NCBI GenBank assembly: GCA_046563655.1
Contig: CM102289.1
Span: forward strand, 9,052,001-9,116,000
Length of the DNA: 64,000 nucleotides
From: Yuukianura sp. NJ FZ-2021
Taxonomy: Eukaryota
Direction: 5' to 3'
Positions 11,879 through 38,700 of the stretch are shown here, in pieces (within the stretch, counting starts at the first letter, position 1; each line of letters opens with the position of its first letter). Made by a program: the position numbers and the translations under genes. The notes beneath the pieces were generated by a model. That model was given only the letters and a program-made list of their open reading frames with translations, made no database searches and was not told the DNA's origin.

Positions 11879-12531
11879 ACAAAACCAGGATGAATTGATT
11901 TTACTTTTGTTTTTGTTTACGACGATCCTGCTACTCTTGTTTAACTTATTGTTTTTTAGATGTTTAAGTATTTATTTAGATTTTTTGTTTATTGTGAAAA
12001 CTTATTAGATAACTGCGCCTCTTTCTGTAGATCCGTTCAGCAACTGAGTTTTTACGTTGCTGATTTGATGGAAAAAGACTTGAAGTTTAAGCAGTTTGTG
12101 ACAAAGGGGGAGCCACTTGGTTCCCTACTACTAAAATATTGTACATTTTTGTTATTATTATTATTATATTTCTCATGACAAACCAAACCTGAGCAAATTG
12201 TTGCTCAATTTAAATGAGTAATCTATGAAGTTGATATTTTCAAAATTATTATTAACTTACTTCATAACCATGATGGAATAGTGTAGTAAAATTATATTAT
12301 CTTCAATTCAAAAACGTTGTTTTCTTTCAAAATCTGTAGCTGAGATTTTTGAAACTCGTGATTTATTTCATTTTTGATTGTTTATTTATTCTTAACCCAA
12401 GGAATTTGGTCGATTGGGATTGGTCGAAGAACTGACCAATCACTGGAGCCGTTACAAAACGAATGGCAGGGGGTTATAATTTTTATAACTTCTATAAAAC
12501 TTCCATGCTTTCTATAGCTTTCCATTCAGTT

Positions 12532-13821
12532 TTAGAAAAAAGTCGGAGCGACGTCCAGGACATTGTATGAGTCGTCAACCAGCAAAATTTGGCGCCATAG
12601 ACAAAACGTGTTACACGCATGGACGATATCGAAAGATAAAATATCTCCCGGATTTAGTTTATCCTCTTCGGATATTTCCATAAATGCATGTTGGTCCATC
12701 ACCTTAACAATCTTCCAGTGTTTTGGACAATCGCTGAAACAGCGTTTCTTTTCCTGTTCACCCTCACTTTTTGGCTGGACATGACAAACTTGAAATGGTT
12801 TTGGGAAGTCCACGTCCGTCGATACATCGCGCCGTCCGAAACCAATTATGGCCAGTGTCGGTTCCGGTCGTGACTGGACATAAGCTATGACCTTGAGAGC
12901 TGGTTGAAACATCTGAGCCATGTAACGCTCGGCCAATCGCAGCTCGGTTTCCTTGTACATTCCGACATCATGGATCGCGTAGCACCCCGGACGCAGAACC
13001 GGAACGATTTCTGTGGAAGCCGGGAAATATTTTTCAAGTAACGTATCGAGTTCGTCCGTCACAATGTCGAACCAAACCGATCCGGCTCCAGAGATGACCA
13101 GGTCCCGGCCATCGTCGAATGTCAATGACATAAACAGGAGAGCCTCAAACGCCTTGTTGCAAAACGCGCGAACTTCCGTTTCGGTTTTAAGGACTCCCTC
13201 AAAAAATTCTACTCCGGAAGTGACCAAAGTATTGTCAAACTTTTTGAGTTCTCTCAAAATTTCGGCCAATCCGGTCGCAGTTCTCACGCCTGTCCGTCCA
13301 CCGTCGACGCCGATTTCCACTAAAACACGGATTCGCTGCTTCTGCGCTCCAAAAAATGCTGCGAGTTCGTAGACATTGGTGACAGAGTCCACGAGACAGT
13401 AGAATTCCAACGTAGGATGCTTGGCCAGCATGTTAGAAATGATTTTCATGTTGGTTTTTCCTATCAGCTGATTGGCCATCAGGATTCGTTTGGTGGGGCC
13501 AATCTGTTGAACTACTAATGTCTGCTGGACATTGGCTGTCGTGAATCCCCACACTCCCTCCTTCCGCTGCTGGTCAATAATTTTGGGACACATTGTGGTC
13601 TTGACATGGGGACACAGTTTATACCCCATGTTAACAGCATACTTGGCCATCCGCTCAATGTTACTACACAGGACGGACTCAATGACGCAAACAGTCGGCA
13701 GACTTACGTCTTCCTCCAGGATGTTCCATTTCTGCGTTCCGGAGGTACCGTTCAGTATCGGTTTCCCGATTCCAAGACCTTTGTTCAGTTCCGAATCGGC
13801 GAATTCTACTGGATCGGACAT
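12532..13821 (-). CDS. Fold-type III PLP enzyme, bacterial D-serine dehydratase/'amino acid deaminase' (cryptic DSD)-like; intronless CDS
   Basis: PHVKT PLP-lysine motif, GGRTGVR, SGAGSVWFD, LRPGCYAIHD, GRRD, MDQHAF and an HxC metal-ligand motif (HAC). WNILEEDVSLP and the C-terminal WRQILLVD..Y.V.DV..TFF resemble proteobacterial homologues as I recall them. Confidence 0.88.
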   Translation of the reverse strand: MSDPVEFADSELNKGLGIGKPILNGTSGTQKWNILEEDVSLPTVCVIESVLCSNIERMAKYAVNMGYKLCPHVKTTMCPKIIDQQRKEGVWGFTTANVQQTLVVQQIGPTKRILMANQLIGKTNMKIISNMLAKHPTLEFYCLVDSVTNVYELAAFFGAQKQRIRVLVEIGVDGGRTGVRTATGLAEILRELKKFDNTLVTSGVEFFEGVLKTETEVRAFCNKAFEALLFMSLTFDDGRDLVISGAGSVWFDIVTDELDTLLEKYFPASTEIVPVLRPGCYAIHDVGMYKETELRLAERYMAQMFQPALKVIAYVQSRPEPTLAIIGFGRRDVSTDVDFPKPFQVCHVQPKSEGEQEKKRCFSDCPKHWKIVKVMDQHAFMEISEEDKLNPGDILSFDIVHACNTFCLWRQILLVDDSYNVLDVAPTFF

Positions 13822-13902
13822 AATTTTTTTTTACGTTTTTAACAGAAGTCAATGTATTGCGGGCGAACTGTGGAGGTCAAAGTTTCCGGAAAAAGCAAAA
13901 TC

Positions 13903-13964
13903 CTGAGAAAAATTGAATGAAAAATCGACTGAAACTTTCAAAAAAAATCTTAAGCCTCACTTAC
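13903..13964 (-). other. Predicted 62-nt spliceosomal intron in the 5' UTR of the dehydratase gene
   Basis: Minus-strand GTAAGT donor at 13964 and TTTTCTCAG acceptor at 13903, about 80 nt upstream of the ATG. Confidence 0.6.
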
Positions 13965-14382
13965 GTTAGTTCAGTTGCTCTGAAAACTTTTTTTTTGGAA
14001 TTTCGGAAATCTTAACTCAACTCTTCAAATGCTGTGGAATTCAAAATTTCCAAGCTTCTTTTTTCAAAACTGAAAGTGACAATGGTACACCCTCACGCCA
14101 CTGCAGTCTTAAGTAGTGTCAGAATCTTGTTGCTATCCTAGGTTAAACTAAAGCTAACCCGCTTTGTTTTTTCAAGTTTTACTGAAACAACAAAAGATAT
14201 GACTCGGAAAACTTGAAATTTTGAGTAAAGAAAGTACTTTTGAAAAATTTTGATATGGAGTTTGTTTATTTTTCGATGACTCAAACCTAACGTAAGGTTA
14301 TGTCAAGTACATTTGATGTACATAGGATGTTGATTAGAGGTCAAAGTTTATTGATTAGAGGTCATAGCTTATTGATTAGAGG

Positions 14383-15064
14383 TCACAACTCATTGACTGG
14401 TCCAACGATCGCCACTGCTTCAATTTCAACAAGAGCCTCAGGAATAGGCAAGCAAGCAACTTGATAAGCCATGCGAGCTGGAAATCTCTCTTTGAAGTCT
14501 GGAAATGGAAAAAAAATTGAATTGAAAAATTTTTATGGACTTTCAAAGTTTTGAATTTTCTTTTACATTCTCCATAGGCAGCATTCATGTCCTTAAAGTC
14601 TTTGATGTCTTTGAGTAACACGGTGACCTTCACAACTGAAATCCAAAAAACAGAAAAATGAAAAGATCATAATTTCAATAATTGGAAATTTTGGATTCAT
14701 GAAATTTTGATTCATTTTTTCATAAATTTTTTATACCATTTTTGAATGACGCTCCAGCAGCCTCCAGAATGTGTCCAATGTTATCCAGAGTTTGTCTCGT
14801 TTGACCTTTCATGCCTTCCACCAGCACTCCATCTTTCGTCATTCCAAGTTGTCCAGAAATGTACAAAGTCTTGTCAACCTGGACACCTTGACTTTTGTTA
14901 CAAAAAAAGAAAGTCATGTTACAAGGTCACGCAAGGTCACGCGTGTGACCTTCCATCATATAATACTCTTAGATTTCAACTTTTTACACTGTGTAATTTC
15001 ACCTGAGTGGAAGTGGAACTGGGTTGAGGTGTGGGCTTGTGATGATTTTCCGATTGGTGGCCAT
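14383..15064 (-). CDS. RIDA: RidA/YjgF/UK114 2-iminoacid (enamine) deaminase; exons 15064-15003, 14891-14737, 14635-14567, 14498-14383
   Basis: MATNRKIITS...SQGVQVDKTLYISGQLG...QTRQTLDNIGHILEAAG...VVKVTVLLKDIKDFKDMNAAYGEYF...FPARMAYQVACLP...VEIEAVA. The catalytic Arg (PAR) and the Glu of VEIE are retained. Confidence 0.95.
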
Positions 15065-34400: not shown

Positions 34401-35704
34401 ACATTCTTGACTCTTCAACAATAACATTCTAAAAAAACTTTTTTGAAAAAGGTGACCTTTGACCTCTGCTAAACAGTTTTTAGACGAAGGTTGAATCAGT
34501 AACTAGTGCCAGTTTTTAGTTTTTGAGTAAAAACACTCTGAGTTTTGAAAACCTCATTTGGAAGAGGAAGGATATGACAAGCAGAGAAAGTGATTACTTG
34601 TGAAAACTTTTTTAAACAAGTTTTTTTTAAACAGTTTTTTTAAAAAACGGTGCCGTTTGAACGACGCGCTGCTCCAAGACTGCTTGTTTAGTGATTTTTT
34701 AGATACTCAGTGTACAACTTCCTTTTAAATGAATTCCCTACGGTTTTTTTCTAAAGTGTTTTCTTCTACGGTGTTTTTTTGAAAGTGTTTTTTTTTGAAA
34801 ACCTTGCCTGCCTGTCTTAAGCACTGAATTGGATTCTTGTGCCAGCGTTTTTATAGTGTTTTAGTGTTGGCGTAGATTTTTTGAAAGTTTTTTCAACTTT
34901 AGATTTTGGTTCCCCCATTGGATTTTAGGTTCTTCTGTCACTGTAACTTCCTCAAGTCCATACCTAAAAATAGCTACAGTGTACACTAACATGTACTAAA
35001 AGACTACAGCTTTGTACGAGCAGCCAAACGAATCTTCATCTTTGCATCTTCCAAACTCATCTTCAGTTTTTTCAATTCTTCTTCAAAGTGCAGATGTGGA
35101 AAAATTAATTCCGAATTCCTCGATACAGACAGCGGAAGTCAAAATTTTGAACCCAAAATCAAGAAATTCAAAGCTAAAACTTTCATTTGGATTTTCGCGT
35201 TTTCAGAATTTATTCAAAAATTGAACTGTTTCAGTTCAAAATCAAAGTTGAAAAATTGAAATCTACTTTTCAAAATTTGGAAATTGCGACAAAGTGAAAA
35301 TTGGAGTTGGAGTGAAAGTGTTAAAACGTTTGTACTTTTGTGAAACTTGGAAATTCTTTGAAGTCGGAAAAACTTCTCCTTTTGTGTGTTTTTGTTTCAA
35401 ACAGGCAGTTCGTGGCTTTTGGAAGAAAACTTTTTAGCCTTTCAGTAAATTTGAAAATTTGCATTAGAGTGTGTCCATTTGAGTTATTTTTCATTTCAAG
35501 GTTTTTTGGCAAGAGGGATTTGCATTTCACTAAAACAAAAAAGTTGAATTTAAAAAAAAAGTTTTAAGTCAAGGAAAGTTTTCTGTGAAAGGTCATTTTT
35601 CATGTTCAAGTGAAGTGTGTCAGCCGTAAGGTAATTTCCGAGTTTTTCAAAAAAGTTTACCCAGTTTTTTGAAATTTTTGACTAAAAAGTGAACTTTCCG
35701 AGGT

Positions 35705-38700
35705 ATGAGTGCGGATGAAGTTGCAGAGTTGGCAGAAGCTATTCATTCCCACGCTGATGCACTTTACGAATCTTGGACAAAGGGGTCAAAGGTCAATCGG
35801 CCCAGAAGTCACTCTTCGACTGACTTTGAACATGGAATGAAAGACACTTTGGAATTGTTGGCCCATCCAGAACTCACTCCCACCCTTGAACATTTAGTGT
35901 CCAACTTTGTGCGGCAAGACAAAGCCAAGAGACTTCAAGGGCCCCCATCTCCACTTCAAGGGCCCCCCTCCTCCGTCGTCATGAGCAGTGCCGTCAAACC
36001 GAGTGTTTTGATTGGTCGAGGGAGAAGTGCTAGTCCAAAGCTTATGGATGGGGATGACCCCTACGGTGGGGGGTCACCTCAAGGTCAAAGGTCAAAGGCC
36101 CTTCCGAAGAGCATTTTAGAAGTTGTGCAGCGATTTGAAGCGCCACAAGTCGAACGAAGATCTCCGAGTCGTGTGCCGTCGCCATCACAATTGAACGCTC
36201 TGATTGGTGTAGGCCCGGTGACGTCAAAATCCATTCACGAAAAACTTTATGGAGTTCAGCGCCATATTCCAATAGTAGCAGAAGCGGGAAATTCAAAAAG
36301 TTCAAAAAAAGAACAAAATCCACAACTCATCCCGACGCTCCACTTCCAAAAAATTACTCCACCTCAGATATTTGCCAATAGTCAACTTGCAAGTACTGGC
36401 AGTACTCAATTGGGAAATACTGGCAGTACTTCTGGAAAAGAACACCGGATACCAATTGTCCAGAAAAATGATGACGAAGTTGATGCTGGCCCAGCATCTT
36501 CCAGCATCAGTCCAGCATTTTACGACCAAAACCAAACTAGTCAACTCCCGACAAACAATATTCACATCATCAATGTCAATATGAACGCGCCTCCAGCGCG
36601 GGAAAAACTTTTAAACAAAAGCCCGGGCATCCAAGCCCTGGAAAAAGAGGAGGAGCGACTGTTCGAAGCTCTGCGGACAGGTCAAGTTATACGAGAACAA
36701 GAATCGACCAATCAAAAAGCAGCTTTTCAGCGCAGGTCACCTGACACTGACATTTTAAACAACAATTCAAGAGTTGCTTTTGCCAAAGAACGGATTAGAC
36801 AAAGTCAAGAACATCCGTTGACTCAGCAGCGATTGGAACTCCAGAAAAGACTTCCAGCACCTTCGAGCAATTTAGCTGCAGCGATTGCGCTGCAACAAGG
36901 AAAAGACAAGTTTAAGCAAAACGGAGACACTAATGTTTCAAATCCTCCCGCTACTCGTCACCATCACATTCGAATTGAGCGGGAAAATTATGGAAATGGG
37001 GGACGGCATGCTTGGGCAAATCTTCAAAGATTGAATGGCGGAGTCAGTTCGGCAAGCGTTGCTGACCGGGTTCAACTTTTTGAAAAATATCCTGCTCATA
37101 TTGTAACTAACGGCACGAGTCATGCGCCACCTCATCAGAATACGACGAGTCCTGCACATCAACACACTCACCACCAAAACTTTGAAAAGCCAGTGATTTC
37201 TCAAAATCATGCTCCGCCGTCATACCAAAGTGGTTCTACGCATGTGCCAAAGGAAATCACGCATCCAATCAGGAAGCTTGAAACGCACTACCATAATTCT
37301 ACCGTAATTGGTCCAATAGGAGACCCACCAAAATACGAATCCCACGTTCATAAAATTAATTCTGAGGCGCCAAAATACGAACCACCAGAATATGGAAAAC
37401 GACAAACGCAAATTATTTCAAACATTTCAAATAATTCACCCAGTCATTTCAAAAATTCACTTCAAACTCAGCAGGTTACACAGCATAAACTTTTCTTTTC
37501 AAAAATTTTTTTTATTTTTTTTCAAATCTCTCTTTTTTTTGTGTGACGTGTTGAGGTCAATTAAGTTTAACTTCAAACGATTCTACTGTAAAAGACGGTG
37601 TGACTTTTATGATTAACTTTTAAGTTTTTATCTCTCCGACACACATTTATCCTGGAAATTTTTAATCAGTCAAACCTTTGACCAGGTTGGATAAAAAAAA
37701 TTGAGTGCAAATATTTAATTCATGAAAAAGACAATTGAAAATTTCTAATCAAAATGCGATTGAATGGTCCTTTCTGTGATTCAATTTGAAAAATTTCGGT
37801 GTACTTTTGTAGTTTTAATTCAATTTAGGGCATGACTCAGTCAGTATGCAGAGGAATCAGTTTTTAGCATTTTTACAGGAATTGATTTGTGTTAAACGTG
37901 TAAATGTGAAGGTGACTCCTTAAAAATTTTTACAACTTAGGAAAATTTTTTACACCTATTGTAGATTTTGCACAGTTTTACAGGTTTTGCATAATTTTGC
38001 AAGTTTTGAGCAAAAATTTGTGTAGGTTGATGAGGATGGGGTGTAATAATGGGTGTTAATTTTCATAAAATAATTAGTATAAGTGCAGTTTAAAGTTTGT
38101 ATTTATTCAAAAATTGATTTATGTTTTTACAGCCCGATTTTTTGACTTCTAAGCATGGTCGAAGCCCCACCTCTTTGGAGAATTTGCGAAGGAGTAACAA
38201 GGAGTCAGTGCCAAGGTTTTACTGGCCAGAAGGAAAGCCTCCGCCTACAGCCTACATCCAACAGACATTAGCCAAGGCCGAGGCGGAATTTTCAAAATTT
38301 CATGCATCAACTACGGCCACGACGAGTCTAAATTACGAAGAATTTGGCAAAGTAAGGCAACTATTTCACACTTTACTTTGTGATGATGATGTAACTTACA
38401 TGATGATGTAATGCAAATGAGGAAAAAGACAAGAACTGCTGTAAAATCAGTTATGTTTATTTATGCTTTTAGTTTCTGCAAAGTCTGGGGATTAGTCTAT
38501 ACTGGAAAAAGCCGTTTTGGACAGCCCTGGGCCTTGTGCCTTCATCTACACTTCAACTGGAGCCCTTCAAGGGCTTCTACCGAACCCTTATTTCACAGTG
38601 TCCAGATGAAGCCTCGAGGTTCATGCGTATTTTATGGACAGCCAGAACTGTACTTACGGCAAATGAAGGCGATTTGTCAACATTCCCTTGCGGAAAAGCT

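Follow-up and report, generated by a model that had tools for sequence, protein, structure and literature searches.

A bacterial-type OngC-family deaminase gene beside the native RidA gene in the genome of a springtail

The 64,000-nucleotide stretch of contig CM102289.1 from Yuukianura sp. NJ FZ-2021 (the whole of which is referred to as the window) carries, on the minus strand, an intronless gene for a bacterial-type D-amino-acid deaminase (dehydratase) located downstream of a gene for RidA, a member of an imine-hydrolysing enzyme class. We propose, with a probability of about 0.55, that this deaminase belongs to the OngC family, was anciently transferred to a springtail and is now domesticated beside the native RidA gene, re-creating the bacterial deaminase–RidA partnership. 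The deaminase gene (12532–13821) extends from the ATG at 13821–13819 to the stop codon at 12534–12532, and its coding part (13821–12535) comprises 429 uninterrupted codons for a product of 429 amino acids. The RidA gene (15064–14383, also minus strand) consists of four exons, with three GT...AG introns (111, 101 and 68 bp) between them, and its product has 133 amino acids. The 561 bp between the RidA stop and the deaminase ATG (13822–14382) contain the RidA 3′ flank with its AATAAA hexamers, followed by the presumed promoter and 5′ untranslated region of the deaminase. The original prediction had placed the pair between 12532 and 15064, and these bounds are exact, the first being the end of the deaminase stop codon and the second the RidA start.

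The deaminase product matches two Pfam families, PF01168 (Ala_racemase_N, E 1.3e-9) and PF14031 (D-ser_dehydrat, E 5e-16), both passing the curated cut-offs. The only close solved structure is PDB 3gwq, named 'D-serine deaminase', with which residues 13–429 of the window protein align collinearly (3gwq residues 16–426, E 1e-90). Because this alignment is collinear over the full length, no intron is needed in the open reading frame (ORF). The match also fixes the fold. A 432-codon open frame that matches its family over the full length this well, at a GC content of about 40%, is far beyond chance. No published substrate was found for 3gwq, which is a structural-genomics entry; its bacterial group is the one called 'cryptic DSD / amino acid deaminase'. 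The D-threonine aldolases and 3-hydroxyaspartate enzymes of the PDB match the window protein at E 1e-14 or weaker. Solved structures of DSD1 and of the chicken D-serine dehydratase are present in the PDB, and no sequence of this type was among the eight PDB sequences matched at E ≤ 0.01. A search of 5.8 billion clustered proteins gave 2770 matches, of which the best 120 share 41–45% identity with the window protein and are bacterial wherever they are named; those with names are labelled 'amino acid deaminase' or 'D-serine dehydratase' and come, among others, from Acidobacteriaceae, Cellvibrio and Paraherbaspirillum. No exact copy of the window deaminase was found in this collection. A vertically inherited eukaryotic DSD1 was considered and rejected, as the best 120 matches are of bacterial type wherever named and no DSD1-type chain is among these PDB matches. 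DSD1 and the chicken enzyme have the same broad fold, an alanine-racemase-like N-domain followed by PF14031, and the same reaction type, but the window protein clusters with the OngC type of bacteria. The original prediction of a bacterial-type rather than DSD1-like dehydratase therefore holds, its best relatives being bacterial 'amino acid deaminases' and its position being nested in a bacterial clade. Judged from its sequence, the gene probably encodes an OngC-family fold-type III D-amino-acid/D-glucosaminate deaminase of bacterial type that depends on pyridoxal 5′-phosphate (PLP).

The reading frame is not only intact but also retains the key residues of the family. All 40 invariant columns of an alignment of 30 sequences (A1) are kept, including His72, Lys74, Thr75, His401 and Cys403. 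The PLP-binding Lys74 is part of P-H-x-K-T, and the C-domain likewise retains its H-x-C motif, which, by analogy with related enzymes, would bind metal.

The nearest rows in a library of 50% representatives are P0122, P0123 and P0124, the last being the protein CAG7716565.1 of the springtail Allacma fusca. Two fragments, P0144 and P0156, show higher identity to the window deaminase (54% and 50%, respectively). The phylogeny was studied with a first tree of 92 rows, calculated in a quick IQ-TREE run under LG+C20, and with a second set of 58 rows, which included the sequences most closely related to the Allacma protein as well as the bdelloid rotifer Adineta steineri and was used for a quick and a careful tree. 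The 92-row tree unites the window protein with P0144 and P0156 (SH-like approximate likelihood ratio test, SH-aLRT, 96) and places Allacma, P0122 and P0123 as the sister of this clade (97). Both quick trees contain a clade with an SH-aLRT of 100 that includes the window protein and the genes of a Pseudoalteromonas (locus L064) and a Vibrio (locus L075). A seven-row clade of the window protein, P0144, P0156, Allacma, P0310, P0122 and P0123 is retained in the 58-row quick tree. The careful tree supports it with an ultrafast bootstrap/SH-aLRT of 93/96, the three-row window clade with 100/99 and the enclosing soil-type group with 99/94. All members of the seven-row clade carry Thr or Asn instead of Leu404 in the H-P-C-L-T-F motif, and those of the three-row clade share Gly73Val and Ala70Cys near the catalytic Lys and the loss of Asp-Lys from the F-D-K-W motif. 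The branches are long (0.68–0.88 in the quick trees), and several tree rows have a deviant composition, which could inflate the grouping. We read the seven-row clade as one old acquisition in a springtail lineage followed by fast divergence, with P0144, P0156, P0310, P0122 and P0123 presumably also of animal origin. Since Pseudomonadota and Acidobacteriota are mixed in the sister group of this clade, the donor cannot be named. The expectation that the dehydratase would fall within the Proteobacteria was thus borne out in one part, its position inside a bacterial clade, and not in the other, as the donor is not resolvable to that group.

A search with the Allacma protein gave, after Allacma itself, matches that lack names or are bacterial (Burkholderiaceae/Pseudomonadota), plus Adineta steineri; the database entries of Allacma fusca and Adineta steineri carry automatic names only. 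Adineta steineri possesses several OngC-family copies of 413 amino acids on large contigs (P0427, P0477–P0479). In the 58-row trees they form a branch separate from the seven-row springtail clade, and they look like an independent acquisition by a soil or freshwater micro-animal.

The composition of the window gene resembles that of its surroundings. The deaminase ORF has a GC content of 0.48 and a GC content at third codon positions (GC3) of 0.54, compared with a GC3 of 0.39–0.51 in the native exons of the window, and its start context is A-rich, as is that of RidA. No relics of bacterial neighbour genes were detected within the 64-kb window by Pfam and tblastn. These features point to a domesticated nuclear gene, and we consider it very probable that a real, anciently acquired OngC-family deaminase is present in a springtail. 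Horizontal transfer into springtails is already well known, and the OngC-family enzyme is undescribed in animals in the literature searched. The horizontally acquired genes reported from Folsomia candida and Orchesella cincta, such as beta-lactam and carbohydrate-degrading genes, are likewise intronless or intron-poor genes of bacterial type among native genes. The available portions of these reports do not mention this deaminase family, and at the present locus, by contrast, the foreign gene adjoins the host's own version of the gene that accompanies it in bacterial clusters. The three supplementary files of the F. candida genome paper (PMC5490193) contain none of five terms for the D-serine dehydratase/amino acid deaminase family, and a study of the transfer of D-amino-acid enzymes in eukaryotes (PMC5169069) mentions neither 'D-serine dehydratase' nor 'arthropod'.

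The RidA gene, as the original prediction had it, is a native arthropod gene. Exon 1 (15003–15064, ATG at 15064–15062) ends in phase 2 within a Ser codon. Exon 2 (14737–14891) shows 76% identity to the F. candida RidA and matches PF01042 at E 5e-11, exon 3 (14567–14635) continues a spliced frame that aligns to the RidA proteins of F. candida and Daphnia, and exon 4 (14383–14498; coding part 14498–14386, stop codon 14385–14383) bears the conserved P-A-R arginine motif. The last exon also matches PF01042 (E 8e-6), so that exons 2 and 4 are each recognised alone. The spliced product shares 70.7% identity with XP_021955504.1 of F. candida, a protein named 'rutC family protein C23G10.2 / 2-iminobutanoate/2-iminopropanoate deaminase', and 56.8% with the Daphnia magna RidA, compared with 31–35% for ten RidA proteins of bacterial clusters (OngD-type). 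Further evidence comes from six read-through ORFs that are near-identical to the Daphnia RidA (P0282–P0287). They depart from the alignment exactly at the three intron sites of the window gene, and their read-through residues fit its intron phases, which lends indirect support to the earlier claim that the introns lie at animal-like positions. A nematode origin, suggested by the style of the introns, is rejected, the best RidA match being that of F. candida. We regard the native status of RidA as practically certain. This also disposes of the idea that RidA and the deaminase were transferred jointly as a bacterial ong cluster, with RidA gaining its introns later: bacterial clusters do contain both families, but the far higher identity of RidA to its F. 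candida and Daphnia counterparts than to OngD-type proteins and the matching intron sites exclude co-transfer for all practical purposes. The canonical G-P-Y-S-Q loop of RidA, found in Daphnia, is replaced by P-L-P-L-S-Q in the window protein and in the RidA of F. candida (P0278), and the bacterial OngD-type proteins have Phe at the position of the Tyr, a residue that we take to be dispensable.

The significance of this neighbourhood derives from the organisation of the bacterial genes. The flanks (about 4 kb) of 80 bacterial genome loci of the deaminase family were translated into six-frame ORFs and scanned with a small RidA hidden Markov model. A RidA-family ORF was found at 54 of the 80 loci (55 matches), and at 48 of the 65 loci where both flanks measure at least 3 kb. 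A metagenome set of at least 80 loci, obtained via alignment A3, was used for the RidA-linkage count only; all of its members show at most 44% identity and a bacterial layout, and no second eukaryotic deaminase locus is among those listed. RidA-family ORFs accompany 34 of 80 of these loci, or 17 of 27 with both flanks of at least 3 kb. The background, estimated from 46 PF01042 matches in 32.2 Mb of five of the genomes, is about 1.2% per 8.5-kb locus and corresponds to an enrichment of about fifty-fold. The linkage of deaminase and Rid genes in bacteria, which the original prediction had named, is thus real, at 54 of 80 genome loci compared with about 1% expected.

According to Pfam analysis of six loci, the recurrent cluster core consists of the deaminase, an RpiR/SIS regulator, an Amidohydro_3 protein (D-aminoacylase-like) and RidA. 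In an acidobacterium (L001) a GntP permease, a ROK protein and a GH20 hexosaminidase extend this core, and a Pseudomonas has a PfkB kinase in addition. Among the carriers (loci L001, L015, L028, L033 and L010), many come from chitin-degrading groups, namely Amantichitinum, Andreprevotia, Silvimonas and Cellvibrionaceae. Vibrio penaeicida (L075) has two RidA-family genes, one of OngD type in the divergent unit and one of canonical type located 4 bp downstream of the deaminase on the same strand. The Pseudoalteromonas locus L064 shows a TonB-dependent receptor gene next to the unit deaminase–RpiR–Amidohydro_3–RidA (127 amino acids). This layout equals that of the published ongOT-1/ongCRBD cluster and is the ground for the presumed orthology of the deaminase to OngC. 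The ong cluster, with the operon ongCRBD, has been described in Pseudoalteromonas prydzensis ACAM 620 (Jiang et al. 2022, Nat Commun 13:5899; PMC9537276). According to the available text of that paper, OngB deacetylates N-acetyl-glucosaminic acid derived from chitin oxidised by lytic polysaccharide monooxygenases (LPMOs), and OngC converts D-glucosaminate (GlcN1A) into 2-keto-3-deoxygluconate (KDG) and NH3 and acts as a deaminase on D-Ser and D-Thr as well. OngD, of the RidA family, has 127 amino acids; deletion of ongD abolishes growth, and its role is described there as 'still unknown' (PMC9537276). Whereas the 2022 paper emphasises Gammaproteobacteria, the ong-type cluster also seems to be widespread among Acidobacteriota of soils and Burkholderiales.

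The window locus resembles the OngC/OngD system (PMC9537276) in several respects. The deaminases have the same Pfam architecture, belong to the same clade (support 100) and carry both the catalytic Lys and H-x-C, and a RidA-family gene is the neighbour in both. The locus differs in that the deaminase gene resides in an animal nuclear genome, is about 37–38% identical to those of the Pseudoalteromonas loci and has altered F-D-K-W and Gly73 positions; in that OngR, OngB, KdgK and transporters are lacking nearby; and in that the partner is a RidA of the host's own canonical type, only 31–35% identical to the OngD type. The trait of a RidA-family gene linked to the deaminase is therefore present at the window locus with the host's own RidA in place of the bacterial one.

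A likely catalytic route can be proposed from that of the family. Lys74 would, by family likeness, carry PLP, and a D-α-amino acid with a β-hydroxyl, either D-glucosaminate from C1-oxidised chitin or D-Ser/D-Thr, would bind as an external aldimine. The β-hydroxyl would then be eliminated with the assistance of the His401/Cys403 site, and the released enamine or imine would be converted by water or RidA into a 2-keto acid and ammonia. The predicted products are KDG, pyruvate or 2-ketobutyrate. The native RidA, encoded 561 bp upstream, belongs to the enzyme class that hydrolyses such imines and would stand in for the bacterial OngD. As bacteria keep the essential OngD in the cluster of the deaminase, the animal locus would re-create the bacterial partnership. 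In the RidA paradigm established for Salmonella RidA and PLP-dependent Ser/Thr dehydratases (Lambrecht/Downs, as far as the available text goes), an enamine/imine-releasing PLP eliminase is likewise combined with a hydrolysing RidA. The classical dehydratases, however, are of fold-type II and L-specific, whereas the window enzyme is of fold-type III and, by analogy with its family, presumably D-specific, and the springtail RidA has Leu for the Tyr of the canonical loop.

The guess in the original prediction that glucosaminate from chitinous food is the substrate agrees with the activity of OngC, the only characterised member of the clade, and for the window enzyme it is made by analogy; we would place the odds that glucosaminate is the main substrate a little short of even. 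A more elaborate and rather doubtful scheme is a springtail cytosolic route for C1-oxidised chitin products such as N-acetyl-glucosaminic acid, generated by LPMOs on fungal food or on the animal's own shed cuticle, in which bacterial parts, namely an OngB-type deacetylase encoded elsewhere in the genome and the OngC-type deaminase, would act together with the native RidA. The deaminase would have been kept behind RidA because the released imine must be cleared, as with OngD.

Several observations weigh against the proposed re-creation of the bacterial partnership. The adjacency has been seen at a single locus. In bacteria, at most loci the RidA gene does not directly adjoin the deaminase: in 46 genome-locus matches it forms the end of a divergent unit on the opposite strand and lies at least 1.2 kb upstream. 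The other ong partners are missing from the window, where no deacetylase (OngB, Amidohydro_3), RpiR, KDG kinase or transporter was recognised by Pfam among the 52 ORFs of at least 100 amino acids, and tblastn of the window with OngB, RpiR, PfkB, GntP, ROK and GH20 queries gave nothing better than E 1. Among the matches listed, the annotated proteins of F. candida contain no full-length deaminase orthologue, and among named proteins only that of Allacma is a full-length orthologue above bacterial similarity. The P-L-P-L-S-Q motif is not tied to the pairing with the deaminase, because the F. candida RidA has the same motif without a detectable deaminase orthologue. RidA and the deaminase look like separate transcription units rather than an operon, because each has its own AATAAA hexamers, at 14352–14347 and 14270–14265 for RidA (minus strand) and at 12362–12390 for the deaminase (two candidate poly(A) signals on the minus strand, starting at 12390 and 12367, about 145–170 nt past the stop codon). 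The deaminase itself keeps 92 of the 121 columns that are conserved to at least 90% in 45 bacterial rows, the lowest value of the rows examined (Allacma 103/122, Adineta 114/122), and is the most divergent of the proteins compared. Its deviations include Gly73Val and Ala70Cys, both near the catalytic Lys, as well as Pro402Ala, Asp407Cys and Lys408Leu, and its F-D-K-W motif reads F-C-L-W. Among the best-supported differences to other contigs of the DNA runs (242 more lie beyond these), the deaminase has 10 synonymous and 14 non-synonymous changes, compared with 6 and 1 in RidA. The constraint on the deaminase thus looks real but moderate, and because of the altered conserved positions (Gly73Val, Ala70Cys, F-C-L-W) its substrate may have shifted.

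The strongest of the alternatives, possible though less probable than the reading preferred here, is that the acquired deaminase is functional but came to lie behind RidA through an accident of integration that carries no functional meaning. The single locus, the separate poly(A) hexamers and the orthologous RidA of F. candida without a deaminase detected among its annotated proteins in the matches listed all agree with such an accident. Moreover, RidA acts on freely diffusing imines and would not be expected to bind the enzyme, so that linkage is not required for function, and the locus was drawn from a screen of very many windows for meaningful neighbours. Against this stands the low chance that a given neighbour slot is filled by RidA, which we estimate at about 1e-4 from one or a few RidA copies among about 2 × 10^4 genes. 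The neighbour also belongs to the very family that is tied to the deaminase in bacteria, where it accompanies the deaminase at most genome loci and ongD is essential. Read evidence was taken from Logan contigs of DNA runs X1–X5, of which X5 stems from another study and is labelled organism B. A contig of X1 (record 5) that is about 10% divergent retains the 5′ end of the deaminase (13786–13905) joined to the RidA 3′ flank (14168–14331). In this contig 262 bp of the spacer at 13905–14168 are swapped for 286 other letters while the gene order is the same; it represents a divergent haplotype or strain. The selected, operon-like pairing of the original prediction is not supported by one adjacency of genes that each have their own AATAAA. 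A functional pairing with RidA, resting on that one adjacency, is plausible, and we regard functional selection of the adjacency as nearly an even bet, tilted slightly against.

It is somewhat unlikely that the deaminase has instead changed its job or is drifting, either as a deaminase of D-Ser/D-Thr or another D-hydroxy-amino acid that detoxifies or uses bacterial D-amino acids, or under relaxed constraint toward decay. The reduced conservation count would suit this, as would the substitutions near the catalytic Lys and in F-D-K-W, which recur in part in P0144 and P0156, the 10:14 ratio of synonymous to non-synonymous differences, the long branches and the lack of a KDG kinase or deacetylase in the window. 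OngC itself, as reported in the available text (PMC9537276), takes D-Ser and D-Thr. Decay is contradicted by a 429-codon frame that has stayed intact despite divergence to 40–54% identity with its nearest relatives, and by the retention of all 40 family-invariant residues. The altered motifs are common to the three-member clade and hence indicate lineage-specific change and not random decay.

Bacterial contamination or a chimeric assembly is highly improbable. In its favour, the ORF lacks introns and looks bacterial, no long read from an independent source was seen across the locus, no single Logan contig of the DNA runs covers both coding regions, and runs X1–X4 probably come from the same sample as the assembly. 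However, the best bacterial identity is only 45% among the best 120 of the 2770 matches, and the ORF has a GC content of 0.48, whereas that of the related bacterial lineages is typically roughly 0.6 or more. Animal genes with introns flank the ORF on both sides, within 561 bp and about 650 bp, overlapping contigs tile the junctions, and P0144 and P0156 carry the same lineage-specific motifs. Run X5, with its other organism label, holds pieces of both the deaminase and the RidA gene, without a bridging contig.

The re-created partnership thus remains our preferred reading of a locus that is embedded in ordinary animal sequence. A LARP6-like gene with a La domain and SUZ-C (PF05383, PF12901; 10188–11878, plus strand) is convergent with the deaminase, and a Homer-like gene with WH1/EVH1 exons and a coiled coil (PF00568; 15719–17406, minus strand) lies upstream of RidA on the same strand; both carry introns. 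Other animal exons recognised by Pfam within the 64-kb window encode prenyltransferase-alpha, ABC transporter, DZF/zinc-finger and RasGAP domains. A 617-codon open frame at 35693–37543 (plus strand) has no Pfam match and is rich in Ser, Pro, Gln and His; its product is probably disordered, and the frame probably belongs to an animal gene as a single large exon. A 21-bp tandem repeat of 3.2 copies (14330–14396; Tandem Repeats Finder score 99) covers the RidA stop codon and 3′ untranslated region. Each repeat unit has an AATAA-like core, and one unit (21 letters at 14327) is absent from some contigs of runs X1 and X2, which indicates copy-number polymorphism.

Should glucosaminate be its substrate, the enzyme would allow animals to use the aldonic-acid ends that LPMOs make on chitin. 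Arthropods use their own AA15 LPMOs in moulting, as stated in the available text of PMC9156745, and the fate of the AA15 LPMO products in animals is not addressed in the literature searched. The locus offers a simple two-gene system for the question left by Jiang et al. of why a RidA-family protein is essential in glucosaminate catabolism. It is also a candidate example of a foreign gene that came to rest next to the host's equivalent of the gene with which it once shared an operon. Should the proposed pathway prove true, an animal would have reassembled a bacterial catabolic module and supplied one component from its own genes.

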